Assembly: GCA_041694835.1 (NCBI GenBank)
Contig: JBGFRZ010000047.1
Span: 1 to 23,883 of the forward strand
Length of the DNA stretch: 23,883 nucleotides
Reading direction: 5' to 3'
DNA from: Ignavibacteria bacterium
GTDB taxonomy: Bacteria; Elusimicrobiota; Endomicrobiia; PHAN01
This document shows positions 3,748-15,448 of the stretch, one piece after another. Under the pieces are notes generated by a model, which was not told the DNA's origin, did not search any database, and worked only from the letters and a program-made list of their open reading frames with translations. Position 1 is the stretch's first letter; every line of letters begins with the position of its first letter. Made by a program: the position numbers and the translations under genes.

Positions 3748-4238
3748 GCGAATAGCAAATAGCGAATAGCAAATAGTATGAGGCCGCATAAAAATCTTAA
3801 AATTTGGGAAAAAGTGATGTTGATGATAGAAGAAATTTATCAGCACACTGGCGGTTTTCCGAGAGAAGAAGTTTATGGATTGACAGCCCAGATATGAAGG
3901 GCGGCGGTTTCTGTCGCTTCAAATATCGCAGAAGGCGCGGCAAGAAAAGGAAAGCAAGAAAAAATTCAATTTTTCAATATTGCCAAAGGTTCGCTGAGTG
4001 AAATAGATGCGCAGTTGGAAATATCTTTCAGGTTAAAGTTTTTAAGCAAAGATGACCATTCAAAGTTTCAGTGCGCAATAGATGAAGTAAGCAGAATGCT
4101 TGAAGGCATTATTCAAAATTTAAGAGACCGACAATGAGAAAACCATTTACTATTCGCTATTCGCTATTCGCTATTTGCTTACTATTCGCTATTCGCTATT
4201 TGCTAATCACTATTTGCTATTCGCTATTCGCTATTCGC
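3748..4238 (+). mobile_element. Four-helix-bundle cassette, copy 2, bounded by inverted heptamer arms
   Basis: Left arm (GCRAATA)x4 at 3748-3775, gene at 3778-4137, right arm (TATTYGC)n at about 4148-4238. Near-identical units occur at 1-128 and 5739-6203. Mobility is inferred from the repeated occurrence only. Confidence 0.7.
3778..4137 (+). pseudogene. Four-helix-bundle protein (23S rRNA IVS-protein-like, TIGR02436-type) with one in-frame TGA
   Basis: Manual translation: MRPHKNLKIWEKVMLMIEEIYQHTGGFPREEVYGLTAQI*RAAVSVASNIAEGAARKGKQEKIQFFNIAKGSLSEIDAQLEISFRLKFLSKDDHSKFQCAIDEVSRMLEGIIQNLRDRQ. The family motifs L.IW, FP.EE.YGL..Q.RR, S..SNIAEG and A.GS..E are present. TGA at 3895-3897 corresponds to CGA in the paralog. 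Confidence 0.9.
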
Positions 4239-5738
4239 TGTCTTTATTCTTTTGAAACCGTAAAATTTCGTTCGCCGAGAACCGGTAGAGTCGTCGACGT
4301 GATAAAAGACGAGGTCTTAATTGTTTTTCACGAAGGAATTAAGACGGAAGCAAAAAATGCACTTCATCGGGCTCTGCGCACGACGAAAATCACTGACGAT
4401 ACAGACGAGATATTCTTTCAGAAAGTTAGAATCCCCGCTGGCGAGACCATTGAAAACGTAATACAAAAATACAAGGCCGACCCAGCGGTGAGATATGCCG
4501 AGCCCAACTTTATAAAAAGAAAATTTACCGCTGTCAACGACCCGCTTTATACGGAAAATCCCACAGATGTAGCCAGACAATGGGGGATTGCAAAAATCAA
4601 TGTCAAACAAGCATGGGGTATCTCAACCGGTTCAGGCGTTGTAGTTGCCGTTTTAGATACAGGAATTGACAAAGACCATCCTGATTTTGCGTCAGCGCTA
4701 ACCCCACCGGAGACATGGGGCGTTTATATCGGAACAACAGGTATAAAGGATGTCGACGGACACGGCACTCATGTTGCTGGGATAATCGCCGCCCGTTCCA
4801 ACGGACAGTATGTGGTGGGTGTTGCGACAAATTGTTTGATTCTGCCGATAAAAGTTCTTGGCGATGACAGAAAGGGGACTTTGGCTTCGGGGATTAACGG
4901 GCTTATTTATGCTTCGACCGTTACAATACCTGGCCATCCCGCGGGTGTCCGAATAATAAATTTAAGTTTGGGAAATTATGAATTTTCGGATATAGAGAAT
5001 TTTGCAATCCAAGAGGTCTACAACAAAGGAATAAGTATAATAGCCGCCTCTGGCAACGACAACCGCGACAGCCTCGCGTATCCGGCGGGATATGCAAATG
5101 TTCTTGCGGTCGGCTCCTCCACACCCGATGACACGCGTTCTTCTTTTTCCAACTATGGCTCAAACCTGGGTTTAGTTGCACCGGGCGGCAGAGGTCTGGT
5201 GATAGCCGGTGAGCCCGGCGATATTATTTCGACTTACCCACTTGTGCGCGGAGCCACAGCATACCTTGCGGGCACTTCAATGGCAACACCATTTGTTTCA
5301 GGTGTCGCCGCTTTGATGCTGTCTGCAAACCCCAATTTGTCGCCAAAAGATGTTTATCATATTCTGCGCCACACAACCGATGATATAGACACTCCCGGTC
5401 GCGATATCCGCACAGGATATGGGCGACTTAATGCTTTTAAAGCGGTAAACGCCGTCGTCGGCTACTCTCCAAAAATTCTTGCAAAAGCATATTCATATCC
5501 CAATCCGTTGCATATCGCAAAAAGGCAGGTGGTATATTTTTATATCCCCGAAGCCCTCGGTGTAGAAAATCTCAGGATAAGAATATATAATTTCGCAGGC
5601 GACGAAATAAAAGCCATTAGTGAAAATATGTGGGACGGGAAAGACGACAACGGAAATCTTGTCCCGACGGGACTTTACTTTTTTGCGGTCGAGACATCCA
5701 GAGGCAAAAGCACGGGGAAGATGACGGTTATTAGATAA
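4134..5738 (+). CDS. S8 (subtilisin-like) serine peptidase with prodomain and C-terminal T9SS-sorting/FlgD-Ig-like domain
   Basis: Triad motifs VAVLDTG, HGTHVAG and GTSMA. The prodomain ends V.YAEPN. The C-terminus reads YSYPNP...IRIYN..G...WDGKDDNG..VPTG.YF...TGKMTVIR. Confidence 0.92.
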   Translation: MRKPFTIRYSLFAICLLFAIRYLLITICYSLFAIRCLYSFETVKFRSPRTGRVVDVIKDEVLIVFHEGIKTEAKNALHRALRTTKITDDTDEIFFQKVRIPAGETIENVIQKYKADPAVRYAEPNFIKRKFTAVNDPLYTENPTDVARQWGIAKINVKQAWGISTGSGVVVAVLDTGIDKDHPDFASALTPPETWGVYIGTTGIKDVDGHGTHVAGIIAARSNGQYVVGVATNCLILPIKVLGDDRKGTLASGINGLIYASTVTIPGHPAGVRIINLSLGNYEFSDIENFAIQEVYNKGISIIAASGNDNRDSLAYPAGYANVLAVGSSTPDDTRSSFSNYGSNLGLVAPGGRGLVIAGEPGDIISTYPLVRGATAYLAGTSMATPFVSGVAALMLSANPNLSPKDVYHILRHTTDDIDTPGRDIRTGYGRLNAFKAVNAVVGYSPKILAKAYSYPNPLHIAKRQVVYFYIPEALGVENLRIRIYNFAGDEIKAISENMWDGKDDNGNLVPTGLYFFAVETSRGKSTGKMTVIR

Positions 5739-6203
5739 GCGAATAGCAAATAGCGAATAGCGAATAGTGATATGAGTCCACATAAAAATCTTAAAATTTG
5801 GGAAAAAGTGATGTTGATGATAATTGTCATACCAATAACTTTCCCAAAGAGGAAGTTTATGATTTGATAGTCCAAATACGAAGGGAGGCTGTTTCGGTTG
5901 CTTCAAATATCGCAGAAGGTGCAGCAAGAAAAAAGAAAAGGAAAACAAGAGAAAATTCAATTTTTTAATATTGCCAAAGGGTCACTGAGCGAAATAGATG
6001 CGCAGTTGGAAATATCTTTCAGGTTAAAGTTTCAGTGTGCAATAGATGAAGTAAGCAAAATGCTTGAAGGCATCATTCAAAATTTAAGAGACCGACAATG
6101 AGAAAACCATTTACTATTCGTTATTCGCTATTCGCTATTTGCTTACTATTCGCTATTCGCTGTTTACTCTTCACTATTTGCTATTTGCTATTCGCTATTC
6201 GCT
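5739..6203 (+). mobile_element. Four-helix-bundle cassette, copy 3, bounded by inverted heptamer arms
   Basis: Left arm (GCRAATA)x4 starts immediately after the S8 stop codon, followed by a degenerate gene at 5772-6101 and a right arm at about 6112-6203. Confidence 0.7.
5772..6101 (+). pseudogene. Four-helix-bundle protein pseudogene (frameshifted)
   Basis: Starts MSPHKNLKIWEKVMLMI. Relative to copy 2 it has an approximately 10-nt deletion near 5823, a 7-nt AAGAAAA duplication near 5930 and a 27-nt deletion between AAAGTTT repeats near 6030. It ends LEGIIQNLRDRQ*. Confidence 0.88.
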
Positions 6204-7423: not shown

Positions 7424-7705
7424 TTAGTGCTTTGTCTCTGAACTTTGTATTTTCTTGACTTCATCTGCATAGTTCAACTCAAGGTCTGACAAAGTTGTAA
7501 TTAAAAGCTTTTCTTCTTCTTCAGAAAGATTCCCCGCCATTTTTTCTTTTATCATCAGCAACATATCGATTGAAATTTGCGCATGCTCTAACTGTCTTTC
7601 TATTTTGCCGTTTATGGGATTTGGAATTTTGCCCAACTGCTGCCAGCATGCGGATGCGAGCATTAAAACAAGATTTATGAAATTAGGATTTGTCTTCTTC
7701 TCCAT
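7424..7705 (-). CDS. DUF1844-domain protein
   Basis: 93 aa matching the pattern F..LV.ML...QQLG..PNP..GK....LE.A...IDML..I.EK..GNL..EE..LL...L.DL.L.Y. Confidence 0.8.
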   Translation of the reverse strand: MEKKTNPNFINLVLMLASACWQQLGKIPNPINGKIERQLEHAQISIDMLLMIKEKMAGNLSEEEEKLLITTLSDLELNYADEVKKIQSSETKH

Positions 7706-9329
7706 ATTCTAGATATTCGCTTAAAAATTTTGCAATCCTTTCAACCACTTTTTGTTTGCCAAGAAGTTCAAGCAAGTCAAAAAGTCCGGGGCCATACATT
7801 CTTCCCGAAACCGCCACCCTTACGGGATGAAATGCCCTGGATGTTTTGATGCCATTAAGTTCACAGAAATTTCTTACGGATTTTTCGAGAAGAACTTTTG
7901 AGAAATCGTTGCAATTTTCAAAGATGGGCAACAAATCGCGCAGTATCTTGTCTGCGTTTTCATCTTTTAGAACTTTTTCTAGCGCAGAACTTTCATATTT
8001 TACATCATTTAAGACGAAAAAGTCAATTATGTTGGGAACATCGCTGAGCAGTTTTATTTTTTCTTTCTCGGTGCGAAGAATTTTTATAATTAGTCCGGGA
8101 TTATCCATAGGCAGAGCGGCGTTCGTTATAAACGGAATTGACTTCTTATATATTTCTTCGGCGGAGAGTTTTTTAAGGTATTCCATATTGAGCCACTGAA
8201 GTTTTTGTATGTCAAAAATAGCGGGGCTTTTTGAACATTTCTCAAGCGAGAATTTATTGAGCAGTTCGTCTAATTCAAAAATTTGCTGGCTGTCCGATGT
8301 TGACCAGCCAAGAAGCGCAAGATAATTGATAAGTGCCACATTGAGATATCCGTCATTCTTGTATTCCAAAACGCTCGTGTGTCCATGCCTTTTTGAAAGT
8401 CGACTTCCGTCGGGACCAAGTATCATAGAAAGATGAGCGAATTGCGGCAACTCCCAGTTCAAGGCATTGTAGAGATGAATTTGTCGCGGCGTGTTTGAGA
8501 GATGGTCGTCGCCTCTTATTACATGCGATATCTCCATCAGTTTATCGTCTATGGTGCATGCGAAGTTGTATGTGGGAACTCCCGACGCTTTCAGAATAAC
8601 AAAATCGTCCAGCAATGTGTTTTCAAATTCAAGATGTCCGCGGACAATGTCGTCAAACGCGATTTTTCCTTCCCGCGGCATCTTAAATCTTATTACAGCA
8701 TTCTGTCCCCCGCCATCTGTTCTCACTCCTCTATTCCTGCATCTTCCGTCGTATTTAGGGGGAAGTTTTTTTGATTGTTGCTCTTCGCGCATTGTTTTGA
8801 GTTCTTCGGGAGTGCAGTAACAGTAGTATGCTTTTCCGTTGGAAATAAGTTGTTTGGCGTATTTTTTGTAGATGTCGAGCCGCTCCATTTGGAAATAAGG
8901 CCCATACGAACCAAGTTGAGAGTTGAGAGTTGAGGGGTGAGAGGTGAGAGGTGAGAGGTGAGAGTTGAGAGATGAGAGTTGAGAGATGAGGGGTGGGGGG
9001 TGAGTTTTTTCTCTGTCCCCCGTTTTCTGTCCTCTGACCTCTGTCCTCTGTCCTCTGACCTCTGTCCCCTGTCCTCTGACCTCTGTTCTCTGTCCCCTGT
9101 CCTCTATTTTCGGGCCTTCGTCCCAATTTAAACCCAGCCATTGCATACTTTCAATTATTGCTCTTATCGATTCATCCGTTGAGCGGGCTTCGTCGGTATC
9201 CTCGATTCTTAAAATAAATGCGCCTCCGTTTTTCTTTGCAAACAGCCAGTTAAAAAGAGCGGTTCTTGCTCCGCCGATGTGCAAATATCCCGTCGGAGAA
9301 GGCGCAAATCTGACTCGGATTTTGTTCAT
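7683..9329 (-). CDS. gltX: Glutamate--tRNA ligase with a 66-aa repeat-derived insertion
   Basis: Motifs RVRFAPSPTG.LHIGG (HIGH), LRIEDTD, SHVIRGDDH and RLSKR (KMSKS equivalent), plus a C-terminal anticodon-binding domain. Confidence 0.96.
   Translation of the reverse strand: MNKIRVRFAPSPTGYLHIGGARTALFNWLFAKKNGGAFILRIEDTDEARSTDESIRAIIESMQWLGLNWDEGPKIEDRGQRTEVRGQGTEVRGQRTEVRGQKTGDREKTHPPPLISQLSSLNSHLSPLTSHPSTLNSQLGSYGPYFQMERLDIYKKYAKQLISNGKAYYCYCTPEELKTMREEQQSKKLPPKYDGRCRNRGVRTDGGGQNAVIRFKMPREGKIAFDDIVRGHLEFENTLLDDFVILKASGVPTYNFACTIDDKLMEISHVIRGDDHLSNTPRQIHLYNALNWELPQFAHLSMILGPDGSRLSKRHGHTSVLEYKNDGYLNVALINYLALLGWSTSDSQQIFELDELLNKFSLEKCSKSPAIFDIQKLQWLNMEYLKKLSAEEIYKKSIPFITNAALPMDNPGLIIKILRTEKEKIKLLSDVPNIIDFFVLNDVKYESSALEKVLKDENADKILRDLLPIFENCNDFSKVLLEKSVRNFCELNGIKTSRAFHPVRVAVSGRMYGPGLFDLLELLGKQKVVERIAKFLSEYLEYGEEDKS
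8913..9110 (-). repeat. In-frame two-arm heptamer element inside gltX: (ACAGAGG/TCAGAGG)n - spacer - (CTCTCAA/CTCTCAC)n
   Basis: 198 nt between the codons for WDEGP and GSYGPY. Heptamer periodicity is clear on both arms. Confidence 0.93.
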
Positions 9330-9335
9330 AGTTAA

Positions 9336-9462
9336 GCAAATAGCGGATAGAGATGAGAGGTGAGAGTTGAGAGTTGAGAGATGAGGGGAGGGGGTTGAGT
9401 TTTTTCTCTGTCCCCCGTTTTCTGTCCTCTGACCTCTGTTCTCTGACCTCTGTCCTCTGACT
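9336..9462 (-). repeat. Second copy of the same two-arm heptamer element, directly upstream of gltX
   Basis: Shares an approximately 70-nt core (gagagttgagagatgagggg...tgagttttttctctgtcccccgttttctgtcctctgacctctgt) with 8974-9044, with 2 mismatches. Confidence 0.9.
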
Positions 9463-9503
9463 TGTGCTCTGTTGCTTGAATCTATACCTCTCTACCTATG
9501 CTA

Positions 9504-10361
9504 TTATTTTGCGCATCTAAACCCGACGTCGTATCTGACTTCGTCGGGTTTTATAATATCGCGTATATAGACGGCGGCCAGAGTTTTCGATGTTTTGAAA
9601 GATCCACCTCTTACAACGATGTACATCTTTCCGAATTTGTCGTTTTTATAGATGCAACCCGGGTATGGCTGGAAAAAAGAGTCGGTTATTTCCTTCGCGT
9701 TGCCCGCCATATCTAAGCATCCGTAAGGGCTTTTACCTTCAACAAATACGCCCGTTTTTTTGAGCCATCCCAGACCGAGCCACGAACTAACGTTTGCCAA
9801 GTTGTCATACCATGTTCCTCCCCAAGGATAGCGTCTTCCGTCGATGCCCCTCGCCGCTTTTTCCCATTCCATTTCGGTGGGGAGCCTTTTGCCTGCCCAT
9901 TTGGCGTATAAATGAGCGTCATAGTAGGAGACATTTGTAACGGGATAATCGTCTGTTCCGCCCGGAAAGTCGCCGTTTTTCCAGTGCCTCGGTGGTCTAT
10001 GCTTCGTAGCGTCGATGAATCTTTTATACTGAACGTTTGTGACTTCATATTTATCGATATGGAAGCTGTCGATGTATATTTTTCTTCTCGGGCCTTCGTA
10101 AGGAAAACTCTCGTTCGTTCCCATAATAAACTCACCGGCAGGCACAAAGACCATTCCAGGGATTTCTCGCTGTTTTTTGTCTGCGGCATAAAGACATTTG
10201 TAAGATGAGAAAGTGATAAAGTGACAAAGTAAAAAAGTAAAAAGTAAAAAGTGGAAAAAACATAAAGTATAAAACACAGATAGTTTTAAACACTTTCTGT
10301 TTTCAGCTTTTCGCATTTGTTTTTTGGCCTGTGCCTCGCACCGTACTCTCGGATTTATCAT
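9504..10361 (-). CDS. Formylglycine-generating-enzyme (SUMF1/EgtB/PvdO) family protein; the true start may be ATG at 10316
   Basis: Motifs MVFVPAGEFIMG, F.IDKYEVTN.QY..F, PVTNVS..DA..YA.WAGKRLPTE.EWEKAARG, DMAGN, RGGS and GFRCA. Confidence 0.92.
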   Translation of the reverse strand: MINPRVRCEAQAKKQMRKAENRKCLKLSVFYTLCFFHFLLFTFLLCHFITFSSYKCLYAADKKQREIPGMVFVPAGEFIMGTNESFPYEGPRRKIYIDSFHIDKYEVTNVQYKRFIDATKHRPPRHWKNGDFPGGTDDYPVTNVSYYDAHLYAKWAGKRLPTEMEWEKAARGIDGRRYPWGGTWYDNLANVSSWLGLGWLKKTGVFVEGKSPYGCLDMAGNAKEITDSFFQPYPGCIYKNDKFGKMYIVVRGGSFKTSKTLAAVYIRDIIKPDEVRYDVGFRCAK

Positions 10362-10765: not shown

Positions 10766-10829
10766 AAAACCTCCATTCCGCCAATGCGGAAACTAAAGCT
10801 TAAGAGTTAAAATTAAACAAAATATTTTC

Positions 10830-11000
10830 GGCTCTTCTCCAAATGTTGTTGTAACATTGGGTAAAGATTTTGCAAAAACAAAGTATTTTCGCTCATTCTC
10901 GTCCCGATAAATCGGGAGCGGGGTAATCAAGTGTTCACACTTGATTAAACCCGCTCAAACACTTTGTTTTTATACGCACAACAAAAAATGGAGAAGACCC
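10830..11000. mobile_element. MITE-like element, copy 1 (171 bp)
   Basis: Imperfect terminal inverted repeats GGCTCTTCTCCAAATGTTGTTGT / ACAACAAAAAATGGAGAAGACCC. Internal hairpins AAAAACAAAGT..ACTTTGTTTTT, TCCCGA-TAAA-TCGGGA and AATCAAGTGT-TC-ACACTTGATT. Confidence 0.82.
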
Positions 11001-11350
11001 TTAATATCTACCAAATCTGCGAAAATCTGCGTCCTAAAAAATAATTGAACGCAGATGAACGCAGATGAGAAAAGATTTGAATCACGAAAGCGCGAAAACA
11101 CGAAAATACTTGTAAAGAATTTTGTGATTTCTAATTTTCGTGATTTCGTGGTAAAGTTTTTAATCTGCGATAATCCTGTAAATCTGCGTCCTAAAAAATA
11201 ATTGAACGCAGATGAACGCAGAAATAACTTTGATAAACGCAGATTAAAACAACTATAAACCCATCCGCGAAAGTCCGCGTCCTATTTCTGCTCCGTTTTT
11301 TTATTTTTGGACGCAGATAAATACCGATGTTGACAAAAGTTTTTAATATC
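11001..11350. repeat. Array of inverted decamer elements (RACGCAGAT...ATCYGCGTCC) enclosing an octamer element (CACGAAA...TTTCGTG)
   Basis: Units are directly visible, with an exact 43-bp direct repeat at 11023-11065 and 11180-11222. The segment begins and ends with TTAATATC. Confidence 0.85.
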
Positions 11351-11553
11351 GGCTCTTCTCCAAATGTTGTTGTAACATTGGGTAAGGATTTTGCAATACC
11401 GCTATGATGTGTGTGGGGTTATGTAAAAACAAAGTATTTTCGCTCATTCTCGTCCCGATAAATCGGGACTGCGAGGCAATCAAGTGTTCACACTTGATTA
11501 AATCCGCTCAAACACTTTGTTTTTATACGCACAACAAAAAATGGAGAAGACCC
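11351..11553. mobile_element. MITE-like element, copy 2 (203 bp), direct orientation
   Basis: Same termini and hairpins as 10830-11000, plus about 30 extra nt near 11397-11425. Confidence 0.82.
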
Positions 11554-11572
11554 ATATTTTTAACCTTTAACC

Positions 11573-14569
11573 TTATCTACCTTCTCTCAGTTTGGCAGCG
11601 GCCATTTTTCTTAAGACCGGGTCCGGGTCGTTAGCAGATATATATTTTAACGCCGTAAGAACTCTCGGATTTTTTATGTCAATCAGTGATTCGATAGCTT
11701 TTTGCCTGTATGCAGGATTTTCTTCCTTCAGCGCGCGCACTGTAAGATTGATGGACGCTTCCGACTTTAGATTTTTCAGTTGTTCTATAACCCACATCTT
11801 TAATTCAGGTTTGTTTAGAACATAAAGTTTTTCAAGCTCTGGGATGTCGCTTTCGTCTATAAGTTTGGATAAAACAGCCAAAAATTCATGGTTTTCTTTT
11901 CTGTTCCGGGGGTTTAAAAATTTCGCCATGTTAAAAAGAACGGGATTCGCTTCATGTAAGTTCAATTTAGGAATGATACCGAGGGCGTAATTGCGTGAGT
12001 GCCAGTTTTCGTCGTTAAGGGCTTTTAATATATACGGCAGATGAGATTTGTTCAATATCGAATCGAGAATAGATTTCGCTTCATCTCTGACCGAGGAATC
12101 GCTGTCTTTAACGAGGTTGAAATATATGTATATCGTTTTTTCATCGTTATCACCCATCTGAAAAAGCGCTTTCACAGCGTTTTTTCTGCACTCGGGATAT
12201 ATGTCTTTTTCGGCCATTTTTCTCAAACTCGAAATCGCGTCCCGGACATTCGCTTTGCCCATGATTTTTGCGGAGAGAGTTCTTATCGACATGTCATTAT
12301 CAGAAAGCATGGTCTGGATTTTTTTTAGTGCTTCTTCATTTACTATATTCTCTATCGCAAGAAGAGCGTTTTGTCTTACAGAAATATCCGTGTCGCCGAG
12401 GAGCGGGATTATTTTGGTGGCGTGCTCAAATCTCGGGTTCTTTGCCATGAACTTTAAAGCCTCCTCTCTTACAGATGGATTTGCGTCAGAAAGCGCCCCT
12501 AGAATATCATCGGAGACATCCGTTTTTTGTGTTTCGTTTATCGCTTTTGATGCCATCCATCGTATCTCGGGGTTTTTGTCTTTCAGCGCAAGCATCAAAA
12601 ATGGATGAGGCTCTGCCATTTTTAAATTTCTTATTACCTCAATAAGCGAATATCTGATTTCGGTGTCCGACTTTTCGTAGTCTATGTATTCGAGATTTTT
12701 GGCGAATTTCTTTGAAGGGAATCTTTTTAACACCCCGAGTATAAAAAGCCGCATTTGCTTTTTTTGTATTTTAAGATGTTCTGAAAGCTCAACGACATCT
12801 TGCTCGTTTTTGACGATTTTTTCTATAGCGTCTTTGGCTCTGAGAGAAACCTCTATATTTTTATCGTTAGCCGCCCTTGCGAGATGGGGAATGGCCGAGG
12901 TGTCGGCGCGAGATGAGAGTATCTCTATAGCCTGAAATTTGATTTCGTCCGGATGTTTCTCTAAAAAGTGAAAAGCCAGTGTGTAAGGCGCGGGCACAAG
13001 TTTATCCATTGTTTTTAATACCTCTTTTTTGACGGACGCATCAGTTTCTTTTTTAACGAATATTTCAAGCACTTCCACCGATTCCCCATATTTTATTTTT
13101 GATATTTTTTCCAGGCACCGCAAGGCTGCTATCCTCGTCTGCGGAGATTTGGACATTGCGGCTTTTTTTATTTCCGGCAGGTTATCTTGGGAAGATATCG
13201 AGTACATCGCTTCCGTAAGCACTTCCGAAACATATTTGTTGCTCTCGTTTTCGATGGCCGATATCAGAAAATGAAACATCGTGCTTTCTTCGGATATTTT
13301 TATCAGTGCACCTGCATTTTTTCTTCTGATGGGATTCTTTGAGTTAAGCTCCGTTATTAAATAATAAATGAATTTTTTATCGAAGAGCTTTTGAAGGTTG
13401 CTCTCGGCCGCGGTTCTTACTTTTTTGTCGGGGTCGTCAAGCATTGAAAATATCATTGGGAAGGCGTCTTTTTCTCCTATGTCGCAGATGTTCTCGACGC
13501 AAAATGCCCGAATTTTAGGCGAACCCATCTTCAGAGCCGCAATCCAATAAACGAGCGAGTCGCTGCCATCAAGATTTTTTAGTATGGATGGTATATTTTT
13601 TTGTATTTTCTCGTCCCTGTCCAAGAGAAGAGAGAGCGTCTTTCCTATGAAAGGGTAGTATCCGATTTTGGATATCGTTCTTGCGGCTTCAAGCCGTATT
13701 TCCGGAATCTCGTCTTTCAGATATTTTTCAAGTATTACAAGTGAGATTTTATTTTTTCCGAATTTGTGTAAAATCCTTGAAATGGCGTATCTTATGTTGT
13801 CATTTTCGACGGATATCGATTTAAAATAGTCGATAACTTCTTCGCGTTCGAAACTGCTTATCAGATCAAGCGTTTCATATACCAGGGTTGTTTCGTTTTT
13901 TGCTGTTGACACAAACGTTTTAAGCGTTTGAAAAGTGAAATCGTCTTTATTTGAAAGAATGATTTTTCTTGCAAGATCTTTAACCTCTGCATCGCTGTCG
14001 TCGAGTAGCGGAAGTATATGTTTTAAATAATCGTTCCTTAAATACGCGGTTATGCCTTTTAGTCCGGCTTCCCTCACCGAATTATCCGGGTCGATGAGCG
14101 CCGCTCTCAATATGCCGAAAGATTCGGGCGACTTCATCTGTGACATTTTTTCAACAGCATCTTTTCTTCTGTCGGGTTGCCCAAGCTCGAACTGGGATTT
14201 CAGAGCGTTGAAATCCTGAGCATTTAATGGAGGGAGCAGAGAATAGCAAATAGCGAATAGCGACGTAGCAATATAGCGACGTAGCGACACGGCAAACAGC
14301 GAATAGCGGATAGAGATGAGAGGTGAGAGGTGAGGGGTGAGAGAATAAAATGCCGTAAAGCGGAAAGCGTAAATGGTGAAGGGTGAGAGAATAAAATGCC
14401 GTAAAGCGGAAAGCGTAAAGGGTGAAGGGTGAGAGATAAAATATCGCGAAGCGTAAAGCGTGAAGAGGGAACGGCTTTTAACTCTTTCCGCTTCCCGCTT
14501 TCCGATATACGCTTCCCGCTTCCCGCTTTCCGTTTTCTGTCCTCTGACCTCTGTCCTCTGTCTTTTCAT
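11573..14569 (-). CDS. Large HEAT-repeat protein with a repeat-derived N-terminus; the true start is uncertain
   Basis: Many L.D.D..VR..A...L units over about 880 aa. The ATG lies 9 nt after the hisG stop. Confidence 0.88.
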   Translation of the reverse strand: MKRQRTEVRGQKTESGKREAYIGKREAERVKSRSLFTLYASRYFISHPSPFTLSALRHFILSPFTIYAFRFTAFYSLTPHLSPLISIRYSLFAVSLRRYIATSLFAICYSLLPPLNAQDFNALKSQFELGQPDRRKDAVEKMSQMKSPESFGILRAALIDPDNSVREAGLKGITAYLRNDYLKHILPLLDDSDAEVKDLARKIILSNKDDFTFQTLKTFVSTAKNETTLVYETLDLISSFEREEVIDYFKSISVENDNIRYAISRILHKFGKNKISLVILEKYLKDEIPEIRLEAARTISKIGYYPFIGKTLSLLLDRDEKIQKNIPSILKNLDGSDSLVYWIAALKMGSPKIRAFCVENICDIGEKDAFPMIFSMLDDPDKKVRTAAESNLQKLFDKKFIYYLITELNSKNPIRRKNAGALIKISEESTMFHFLISAIENESNKYVSEVLTEAMYSISSQDNLPEIKKAAMSKSPQTRIAALRCLEKISKIKYGESVEVLEIFVKKETDASVKKEVLKTMDKLVPAPYTLAFHFLEKHPDEIKFQAIEILSSRADTSAIPHLARAANDKNIEVSLRAKDAIEKIVKNEQDVVELSEHLKIQKKQMRLFILGVLKRFPSKKFAKNLEYIDYEKSDTEIRYSLIEVIRNLKMAEPHPFLMLALKDKNPEIRWMASKAINETQKTDVSDDILGALSDANPSVREEALKFMAKNPRFEHATKIIPLLGDTDISVRQNALLAIENIVNEEALKKIQTMLSDNDMSIRTLSAKIMGKANVRDAISSLRKMAEKDIYPECRKNAVKALFQMGDNDEKTIYIYFNLVKDSDSSVRDEAKSILDSILNKSHLPYILKALNDENWHSRNYALGIIPKLNLHEANPVLFNMAKFLNPRNRKENHEFLAVLSKLIDESDIPELEKLYVLNKPELKMWVIEQLKNLKSEASINLTVRALKEENPAYRQKAIESLIDIKNPRVLTALKYISANDPDPVLRKMAAAKLREGR
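14238..14562 (-). repeat. Composite of several heptamer/octamer repeat families plus a 46-bp tandem duplication, all in frame in the HEAT ORF
   Basis: On +: GCRAATA and TAGCGACG units, then TGAGAGG units, a 46-bp unit at 14335-14380 and 14381-14426, AAAGCG units inverted to CGCTTYC units, then CCTCTGW units. Confidence 0.9.
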
Positions 14570-14578
14570 CTCTACTCT

Positions 14579-15448
14579 CTAATATATCACTTTATTAAGT
14601 GGATATTCAATAATCCCTTCCGCTCCTAGACGCTTTAACTTCGGAATTATTTTCTTTACGACGGATTCTTCTATCACTACTTCTAACGCGATCCAGCCCT
14701 TCATTGTTAGATAAGAGACTGTAGGTTTCTTCAGCGCCGGAAGCTCTCCGAGTATTGTCTTGAGATTTTTTTCTTCAAGATTCATCTTGAGTCCGACGAG
14801 TCCTTCAGCGTTCAATGCCCCTGTCAGCAGTATGCTCAAATTTTCAAGCTTCTCCCTTTTCCACGCATTTTTCCATGATTTCTTGTTCGCTATAAGGCGC
14901 GTTGTCGAAAAAAGAAGCTCGTCGACTATTCTGAGTTTGTTCGCCCGCAGAGATGAGCCCGTTTCGGTGAGTTCAACTATGGCGTCGACAAGCGAGGGGG
15001 TTTTGGCTTCGGTCGCTCCCCATGAAAACTCTACTTCGACATTTATCTTTTTTTTCTCGAAATATTTTTTGGTGAAGTTTATGAGTTCGGTTGCAATTCT
15101 TTTCCCGCTAAGGTCTTTGATTGAGCGTATTCTTGAGTTTTCCGGGACCGCCAGAACCCATCTTACCGGCTTGAACCCGGATTTCGCATAAAGCAGTTCG
15201 CAGATTTCCATGATATTCACATCCGACTCGAGTATCCAGTCATAACCCGTTATCCCGGCATCAAAGACTCCATCCTCGACATATTTCGGTATTTCCTGCG
15301 CCCTTACAAGCATTATTTCGAGTTCCTCGTCGTCGCAGTTGGGAAAGTAAGAACGTTCCGAGGATCTTATTTTTATCCCGGCTTTCCTGAAAATTTCAAT
15401 CGTCGATTCCTGTAAACTTCCTTTTGGGAGCGCAAGTTTAAGCTTCAT
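14579..15448 (-). CDS. hisG: ATP phosphoribosyltransferase (long form)
   Basis: Motifs LKLALPKGSL, RAQEIP.YV..G..DAGITG.D, RIATE, GATE and DAIVELTETGSSLRAN.L, plus the C-terminal regulatory domain (LPALKKPTVS...GAEGII). Confidence 0.96.
   Translation of the reverse strand: MKLKLALPKGSLQESTIEIFRKAGIKIRSSERSYFPNCDDEELEIMLVRAQEIPKYVEDGVFDAGITGYDWILESDVNIMEICELLYAKSGFKPVRWVLAVPENSRIRSIKDLSGKRIATELINFTKKYFEKKKINVEVEFSWGATEAKTPSLVDAIVELTETGSSLRANKLRIVDELLFSTTRLIANKKSWKNAWKREKLENLSILLTGALNAEGLVGLKMNLEEKNLKTILGELPALKKPTVSYLTMKGWIALEVVIEESVVKKIIPKLKRLGAEGIIEYPLNKVIY

Follow-up and report, generated by a model that had tools for sequence, protein, structure and literature searches.

Repetitive elements that lie within or beside genes have been described in several organisms. 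Rickettsia palindromic elements (RPEs) are found in frame in many genes, housekeeping genes included, and are judged to leave room for the proteins to fold and work (Ogata et al., 2000, as summarised in a review of MITEs, the miniature inverted-repeat transposable elements, PMC10969869). Inverted pairs of heptanucleotide arrays have been reported with GGGAATC units in Xanthomonas and GGGGA(T/C)T units in Nostoc (Rehm et al., 2015; PMC4692102), the account of the Coxiella burnetii 23S rRNA intervening sequence (IVS) describes GACAGAT heptamers that vary in number between strains and lie in front of S23p (PMC4990558), and the tandem repeats in open reading frames (ORFs) of Borgs are described as yielding disordered protein segments (bioRxiv 10.1101/2022.05.18.492195). 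Here we analysed a 198-nt element, built of two heptamer-repeat arms, that lies in frame within gltX, the gene for glutamyl-tRNA synthetase (GluRS), on a 23,883-nt contig (JBGFRZ010000047.1 of assembly GCA_041694835.1; C6 in our numbering), which as a whole is called the window below. The contig is part of a draft metagenome-assembled genome (G000) of 1.91 Mb in 89 contigs, with 42.5% G+C and rated 97% complete. We consider it likely that the insert is a selfish or neutral heptamer element that is translated in frame as a disordered, tolerated loop of a functional enzyme.

Comparison with the described systems shows likenesses and differences in each case. Like RPEs as presented in the review, the gltX element is short and palindrome-like, occurs in multiple copies, lies in frame in unrelated genes and adds a peptide (PMC10969869); in this genome we found eight in-frame inserts in seven unrelated genes. 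The RPEs described there, however, are families of ~150 bp with conserved sequence in Rickettsia and have no tandem 7-nt units, whereas the gltX element has heptamer arms of variable length, conserves only a 23-nt centre and resides in an Elusimicrobiota-type host. By analogy, the element is one that behaves like an RPE in a host that is not Rickettsia, and we do not claim it as a member of an RPE family. With the heptamers reported in PMC4692102 it shares dispersed 7-nt tandem units, variable copy number, a frequent arrangement in inverted pairs able to form stem-loops and a preference for the spacers of co-oriented genes. According to that report those arrays are depleted in coding sequence, and they were studied there as G-quadruplex formers; the gltX units, in contrast, are not G-tract repeats and lie in frame in an aminoacyl-tRNA synthetase. 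In substance, the gltX element belongs with the poorly understood heptamer repeats of bacteria.

The complementary, stem-forming arms recall the Coxiella IVS, whose GACAGAT heptamer as given in PMC4990558 is one base from a GACAGAG unit found here. Unlike that IVS, the gltX element has no PF05635 gene, lies in a coding frame rather than in rRNA, and has arms that are 66% complementary, while the Coxiella stem is described as 28 bp and nearly perfect (PMC4990558); excision by RNase III within gltX would be harmful. The insert has a centre of 23 nt and no ORF of its own, which sets it apart from a PF05635 cassette. With the Borg repeats, as described in the preprint cited above, it has in common that fast-evolving tandem repeats in ORFs give intrinsically disordered products, but those are direct tandem repeats of archaeal extrachromosomal elements and not two-arm hairpins in bacterial housekeeping genes. 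Full-text searches of the open literature, supplements aside, turned up no paper on the translation of heptamer arrays in aminoacyl-tRNA synthetases, nor on PF05635 genes bracketed by arms of this kind.

An in-frame heptamer element in gltX

The gene and the parts of the insert are as follows.

7683..9329, minus strand: gltX, glutamyl-tRNA synthetase of 548 amino acids (ORF list and Pfam)
8913..9110, minus strand: in-frame insert of 198 nt or 66 codons, residues 74-139, between WDEGP and GSYGPY
9024..9110, minus strand: purine-rich arm of 87 nt with units GAGGACA, GGGGACA, GAGAACA and GAGGTCA (A37 G35 C11 T4)
9001..9023, minus strand: non-repetitive 23-nt centre ACGGGGGACAGAGAAAAAACTCA, which reads TGDREKTH and is the signature of a sub-family
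8913..9000, minus strand: pyrimidine-rich arm of 88 nt, a C-rich tract followed by CTCTCAA, CTCTCAT and CTCTCAC units (C47 T24 A17 G0)

From the sequence, WDEGP and GSYGPY had been proposed to be separated by an in-frame insert of 198 nt, and we confirmed it at 8913-9110. It translates as KIEDRGQRTEVRGQ...THPPP...STLNSQL, with the purine-rich arm read as (E/D)RGQRTEVRGQ... and the pyrimidine-rich arm as PPPLISQLSSLNSHLSPLTSHPSTLNSQL; a predicted tryptic peptide beginning THPPPLISQLSS crosses the end of the insert into GSYGPYFQMER. When cut into sevens from base 7, the insert gives 28 heptads in a single register plus 2 nt, running from eleven purine-rich units through a transition (the 23-mer followed by the C-rich tract) to the pyrimidine-rich units. 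Tandem Repeats Finder reported period 7 at 8914-8990 (11.0 copies, 90% matches) and at 9011-9105 (13.6 copies, 77%), and the insert is a heptanucleotide array in the sense of tandem 7-nt units in at least four copies.

The base composition of the arms bears directly on how they can be read. Stop codons are almost impossible in the purine-rich arm because it has only four T in 87 nt, and the pyrimidine-rich arm, having no G, can contain neither TGA nor TAG on the coding strand. Over the insert as a whole, frames 0 and 2 of the coding strand are stop-free and frame 1 has a single TAG, while on the opposite strand TGA occurs 3, 5 and 7 times, counted frame by frame. The stop-free arms, the second open frame at 8755..9141 and the wealth of TGA on the opposite strand, all of which the original prediction had pointed out, are thus present. 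Its suggestion of a long periodic hairpin fared less well. The arms are imperfectly complementary, as supposed (the purine-rich arm and the reverse complement of the pyrimidine-rich arm are 66% alike, 44/67, ungapped), but the folding advantage over shuffled sequences is marginal, at -74.2 kcal/mol for the insert RNA against -63.7 +/- 5.3 (z = -1.98), with 6 of 200 shuffles folding at least as well. For the sibling copy described below, the fold gave z = -2.9.

Absence of the insert from other GluRS

GluRS was matched in 29 of the 31 genomes searched, G000 included, with no match in G012 and G026. In all 28 related genomes the matches to residues ~1-76 and ~138-540 adjoin in the DNA, with no insert between them, and in an alignment of 19 GluRS from related genomes the site holds 5-27 residues. 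A protein search with residues 45-175 against 5.8 billion clusters gave 642 GluRS at E <= 1e-10, and 109 GluRS drawn from the proteins listed in that search were aligned. The loop has 66 amino acids here, then 27, 25 and 22 in the next longest cases and at most 14 in the rest, with modes at 3 and 8; none of the 108 other proteins has the insert. In GluRS2 of T. maritima (3akz) one residue occupies the site, with query residue 75 corresponding to chain residue 96 and query 140 to chain 98. The 109-sequence alignment therefore bears out the claim that a short loop is the norm between WDEGP and GSYGPY.

On either side of the insert gltX is intact. Pfam matched the product to tRNA-synt_1c (PF00749, 5.8e-107), in two stretches, and to Anticodon_2 (PF19269, 6e-29), with no domain beyond these two, and the closest solved structures are those of GluRS (E = 2.4e-119). 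Residues 139-539 are 62% identical to the orthologue of the same family. H17 and G19 of the HIGH region and S312, K313 and R314 of the KMSKS-type motif (LSKR) are conserved in GluRS, the HIGH region and the latter three residues being invariant in the 109-sequence alignment. Together with a model that is confident outside the insert, the two domains and the HIGH- and KMSKS-type residues identify the protein as a class I bacterial GluRS, and its nearest named relatives in the cluster search come from Elusimicrobia and Endomicrobiales metagenome-assembled genomes. No second gltX was detected by tblastn in the 97% complete draft, where this one full-length match is the sole GluRS/GlnRS-type gene detected. 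In the transamidation pathway, a GluRS without GlnRS supplies both Glu-tRNA and the precursor of Gln-tRNA. GatB is present in the genome, and with a single gene of the GluRS/GlnRS type the GluRS of this genome should charge for both Glu and Gln.

Two relatives have something of note at the same site. The closest GluRS (P0002, 74% identity) has a 25-amino-acid loop whose left edge (I-D-G-RT) resembles, at the protein level, the left edge of the insert. In G002, of the same family and another genus, the 27-amino-acid gltX loop is encoded by an 81-nt heptamer hairpin with a purine and a pyrimidine arm and CCTTCCA units (L003, G002:C146); when the G002 array was used as a search pattern, the reversed control was a rotation of the identical repeat and matched equally often. 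Judging from these sequences, the GluRS loop is a recurrent landing site of repeats.

A sibling copy and the 23-nt-centre family

The spacer upstream of gltX holds a second copy of the element.

9341..9470, minus strand: sibling (twin) element in the spacer between the FGE-sulfatase gene and gltX, in the same orientation as the insert, with its centre at 9396-9418
9504..10361, minus strand: FGE-sulfatase (SUMF1-like) domain protein of 285 amino acids, upstream of gltX in the same operon (Pfam PF03781, 9.3e-50)

A twin just upstream, with a core of ~70 nt and 2 mismatches, had been predicted and is real: insert and twin share a 72-nt stretch with 2 mismatches, and over the 111 nt of 9349-9459 the identity is 92.8%, with 8 differences (91% over 118 nt). 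The twin lies in the interval from 9504, where the FGE-sulfatase-like gene stops, to the gltX ATG at 9329; it is in frame with gltX but has no start codon. The order FGE-sulfatase-like gene then gltX is also found in the relatives G001 and G002, where the spacer is 19 nt and an ATGA stop/start overlap, respectively, compared with 174 nt here. This marks the twin, too, as an insertion.

The centre ACGGGGGACAGAGAAAAAACTCA has six copies in the genome, five perfect and the sixth with one base changed: the gltX insert, its twin, a NuoF-like gene (C9), hisF (C28) and spacers on C59 and C62. A search of 121 further members of the class found it in none (the reversed control pattern also gave 0), and neither JGI metagenome contigs nor 185,579 species-representative genomes yielded a match. 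A 23-nt gltX flank likewise had 0 matches in the metagenome contigs, and no independent assembly of the species was found there. As far as these sequences tell, the sub-family defined by the centre is private to this species. The C-rich tract after the centre occurs only in the gltX insert and the twin and not in the other four copies, which makes these two each other's closest kin. Arm lengths vary freely among the six copies, and the insert has 28 heptads where the twin has about 16. A shared non-repetitive core with variable arms points to copying of the element followed by slippage, and not to independent expansion in place.

This pattern is what decides against the view that nothing was inserted, namely that the loop expanded in place by slippage and came to resemble other arrays by convergence or gene conversion. 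Such an origin would suit the single 7-nt register of the entire insert, centre included, the similar left edge of the 25-amino-acid loop of P0002, the small heptamer hairpin of another kind that G002 has in this loop, and the freedom of arm lengths to differ between copies. A non-repetitive 23-mer that is identical at five genomic places and one base off at a sixth cannot, however, have originated independently by slippage, and we regard expansion in place as improbable. Slippage probably does account for the differences in arm length, and expansion in place is best taken as contributing in part, not as an explanation of the whole.

The nearness of the twin also raises the prospect of an assembly artefact, or of a minority allele in a population in which most cells have a plain gltX. 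The assembly is a metagenome draft in which a repeat of 93% identity lies at a distance of 395 nt, the cluster collection has the protein only as a singleton, and in four public runs no contig bridged into gltX. A mis-join at the twin, however, would delete or duplicate the 5´ end of gltX instead of placing an exact 3n segment between collinear halves. The insert is, moreover, no copy of the twin, given 28 against about 16 heptads and 8 differences over 111 nt, and like inserts lie in frame in six other genes on six other contigs. An artefact or minority allele thus seems a slim prospect, a little slimmer than expansion in place.

Heptamer inserts in six other genes

Tandem Repeats Finder gave 800 period-7 rows for the genome, which merged into 319 heptamer elements, 112 of them 60 nt or longer. 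Twenty-one open frames that run across an element and extend for 50 codons or more to either side of it were translated and scanned with Pfam. Besides gltX, six genes on six other contigs have a Pfam domain interrupted in frame.

hisF: one element of 267 nt, in frame (Pfam split)
Valyl-tRNA synthetase (ValRS): two elements of 215 and 188 nt, in frame, about 70 residues each (Pfam split)
NuoF-like protein: in-frame insert (Pfam split)
PALP (pyridoxal phosphate, PLP) enzyme: in-frame insert (Pfam split alone)
Metalloenzyme-superfamily protein: in-frame insert (Pfam split alone)
Histidine kinase: in-frame insert (Pfam split alone)

In total there are 8 in-frame inserts in 7 conserved-domain genes, three of which (gltX, hisF and the NuoF-like gene) share the 23-nt centre. 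Both ValRS inserts are missing in 5/5 relatives, as is the hisF insert (5/5), and the NuoF-like insert is missing in both paralogues of the one relative, of five, that has the gene. The insert peptides are alike, beginning RGQRTE(D/N)R..., continuing with EKREKTH or a second centre and then with LSSLISHLSPLTSHLS.

The hisF and NuoF-like inserts each have one open frame of six, which is the gene's own, and all three in-gene copies of the centre are read in one common frame. Intergenic copies are found in both orientations (18 vs 11 and 11 vs 12), while copies within ORFs favour the stop-free over the reverse orientation (37 vs 4 and 34 vs 7), in counts that come from crude ORF calls and include as internal the open arrays at gene starts. 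We also asked how often elements separate the halves of a split gene. Twenty elements have same-strand ORFs of at least 150 amino acids on both flanks, and for 16 of these pairs Pfam matched both sides; 0/16 informative pairs were a split gene, all being two different, essentially full-length genes, among them S7 and EF-G, PGK and iPGM, and ATP synthase B and D.

Heptamer elements fill strongly conserved operon junctions in this genome, such as rpsG-fusA, pgk-gpmI, hisF-hisI and ATP synthase B-D (L088-L107). Several short in-frame heptamer arrays are also found in giant open frames of 8222, 6366 and 5422 amino acids (contigs C66, C89 and C77).

Probable translation of the insert

AlphaFold2, run on the 109-sequence alignment, gave a model with a mean pLDDT of 87.9 and a pTM of 0.85. 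Residues 82-135 have pLDDT <50 and no secondary structure, and most flanking 10-residue blocks average >90. A disordered surface excursion is expected to look like this, and the insert is most likely translated as such a floppy loop. The original prediction held that such elements enter essential genes in the tolerated orientation and frame, and this agrees with the finding of all eight inserts in frame and of a reverse orientation closed by TGA. It had left two branches, an RPE-like disordered loop or removal or bypass at the RNA level. The pLDDT values, the keeping of frame and the 0/16 split genes favour the first; the second found no support, with no Rfam family at threshold and no intein or intron signature.

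We propose the following course of events. One element of a species-private family of two-arm heptamer arrays would have inserted into the gltX DNA, having arisen from, or given rise to, the sibling copy 395 nt upstream, by a route that may have been local transposition, template switching or recombination between arrays. The site would be the single hypervariable surface loop in the Rossmann-fold half of GluRS, and there the insert would pass into the mRNA and, read in frame, add a disordered stretch of 66 residues to a GluRS that stays functional. Orientation and frame would result from selection and not from targeting. Since the forward arms are short of T or G and have no stops, and the reverse strand has TGA in every frame, only forward copies of 3n length would persist in genes; between genes, both orientations would persist. 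The element, with no demonstrated benefit, would write low-complexity peptides into tolerant loops much as RPEs do.

Several observations weigh against this course of events. At 66 amino acids, the loop is 2.4x the next longest seen (27 amino acids). The 548-amino-acid GluRS is a singleton among the 5.8 billion clusters, and the insert rests on one draft assembly. Six public runs were listed, each with 5-7% of the sampled words, and no RNA run holding the locus was among them. In four of the runs, contigs covered only the simple-repeat parts 8822-9103 and 9292-9479, being <100% alike and derived from the heptamers of other organisms; in these four, no contig bridged into gltX. The sequence of relatives further suggests that the loop may have held repeat sequence before the present copy, which would then have replaced or extended an older remnant. 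By eye, none of the eight in-gene junctions has a target-site duplication, no clear terminal inverted repeat was seen there, and no transposase partner was identified, although no systematic search for one was made. We infer the mobile step only from the shared 23-nt centre.

Known classes of mobile insert were also compared with the element. Terminal inverted repeats of the MITE kind gave a mixed picture: the arms are inverted, at 66% complementarity, and some copies have outer runs of A and T. The unseen target-site duplication at the eight in-gene junctions and the want of an identified partner transposase, for which, as said, the search was not systematic, speak against a MITE. An intein, a group I or group II intron and a programmed bypass found no support either, with no splicing domains by Pfam, no catalytic RNA fold at threshold by Rfam and differing junction codons.

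Removal of the insert after transcription, by excision of a hairpin and re-joining, by ribosome hopping or by protein splicing, would draw on the capacity of the arms to pair into a periodic hairpin (-74.2 kcal/mol) and on the precedent of stem-flanked 23S rRNA intervening sequences, which are reported to be cut out by RNase III (PMC4990558). The fold barely beats shuffled sequences, however (z = -1.98), and Rfam gave for the insert four matches, to families of snoRNA, miRNA and CRISPR repeats, that stay below threshold and look like chance. Pfam found no intein or intron domain in GluRS, and matched take-off and landing codons are not visible at the junctions, where the codons differ. RNase III is described as leaving the rRNA fragments unjoined (PMC4990558), which in an mRNA would destroy the message. 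If the inserts were removed, frame and stops would be irrelevant and splicing would tolerate out-of-frame copies, yet 8/8 are free of stops in the frame of the gene, which for two is the only open frame, and 0/16 informative pairs are split genes. Translation is therefore favoured, and we think removal or bypass very unlikely. Equally far-fetched is an adaptive insert, either a regulatory mRNA hairpin tuning gltX translation or a disordered tail for interactions: a second copy does lie in the gltX leader on the same mRNA and several enzymes have been given similar peptides, but the sub-family is private to one species whose relatives do without the insert, the same element occurs in unrelated genes and in spacers in both orientations, and AlphaFold2 predicts the peptide to be unstructured.

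A possible origin in PF05635 cassettes

PF05635 genes offer one candidate source of the element. PF05635 is a four-helix-bundle family, that of the 23S rRNA intervening-sequence protein, which is described as Avd-like (PMC10053308). With 12-13 PF05635 genes, this genome has more than any other of 122 class genomes. To our knowledge, an arm-bracketed PF05635 element has so far been known only as a 23S rRNA intervening sequence. Flanks of 110 nt with a complementary window of at least 16/20 were found for 10 of 13 PF05635 genes here, compared with 5 of 150 control genes; among 29 PF05635 genes from 29 other genomes, 25 have complementary flanks, compared with 0 of 52 shifted controls. The arms are tandem words of 7-9 nt; in this genome they include GCACAAG, CTATTCG, GGCTCGT and CTATCTA, which rank among its most frequent heptamers. 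In a genome from another family of the class (G022; L086, G022:C3:160800-164300, 2030-2580), a PF05635 cassette with arms of 9-nt words lies directly upstream of gltX. It occupies the position that the twin has here, and its downstream arm is in frame as a GluRS N-terminal extension, MNPMNSTNPMNLTNS.

The window itself holds two PF05635 genes, at 3790-4104 (with an internal TGA) and at 5831-6035 (split over two frames), within elements at 3748-4239 and 5738-6203. Both are bracketed by complementary arrays, (AGCGAAT)n upstream and (CTATTCG)n downstream, and the downstream (CTATTCG)n arm supplies the next gene with its hydrophobic N-terminus (IRYSLFA...).

The architecture of the gltX element is that of a PF05635 cassette minus the gene. 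It is conceivable, if on balance doubtful, that the heptamer elements are the gene-less form of widespread, undescribed PF05635 mobile cassettes that colonise rRNA helices, spacers and protein loops. Four points speak against such a relation. No PF05635 cassette with CAGAGGA/CTCTCAC arms was found in our searches. A perfect (GACAGAG)x4 is present in at least 120 contigs, which belong to Planctomycetota, Pseudomonadota, Verrucomicrobiota, Actinomycetota, Bacteroidota, Clostridia and others (the random expectation for a 28-mer in that collection, estimated from its size, is ~2e-5), and a PF05635 gene lies nearby in only 2/80 such loci of other phyla (L108-L187); a link to cassettes is thus not a general property of the arrays. 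The reverse transcriptase PF00078 was not found in the 97% complete genome. Lastly, the association could run in reverse, with cassettes landing in pre-existing hairpins. An origin of the arrays like that of a diversity-generating retroelement or of telomerase is unsupported, as PF00078 was not found in this 97% complete genome.

Other features of the window

Downstream of gltX lies a further gene of the neighbourhood.

7424..7705, minus strand: DUF1844 protein of 93 amino acids, which overlaps the end of gltX by 23 nt (ORF list and Pfam)

Other repeats are found at a distance from gltX. A compound element in the opposite orientation, at 14239-14580, consists of (GAATAGC)n, (AGAGGTG)n, a 46-nt unit present three times, (CTTTCCG)n and (TCTGTCC)n and lies at the 5´ end of a 1001-amino-acid HEAT-repeat ORF; its 46-nt unit encodes FTLSALRHFILS, a peptide that recurs in the ValRS and metalloenzyme inserts. 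Four ORFs start in arrays of the CTATTCG or CTATTTG type (21-128, 2511-2600, 4134-4239 and 6098-6203) that encode a hydrophobic segment resembling a signal peptide, and in three of the four the 128-nt 5´ ends are 95-97% identical. Downstream of a gene for a 135-amino-acid membrane protein, 10823-11565 is a tandem duplication of ~551 nt with copies 92-96% identical, in which an exact 43-nt repeat at 11023 and 11180 has TGAACGCAGA words.

Significance

Aminoacyl-tRNA synthetases are among the most constrained of proteins. In this genome a repeat process that acts genome-wide has lengthened GluRS by 66 residues and ValRS by ~70 residues at each of two sites, and at least five other conserved-domain proteins have gained similar peptides. 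As 7 is not a multiple of three, each slippage event within a gene is a frameshift. The set of inserts amounts to an experiment of nature on the capacity of core-enzyme loops to take up large disordered additions; it shows selfish DNA creating new protein sequence, and it carries the RPE paradigm over to uncultured, free-living phyla and to elements built from 7-nt repeats. Were the link to PF05635 true, a large family of unknown function would gain a first biological role, and rRNA intervening sequences would be joined to the long-unexplained excess of heptamer repeats in bacteria; cassettes and solo arms would then write new peptide segments into essential enzymes.

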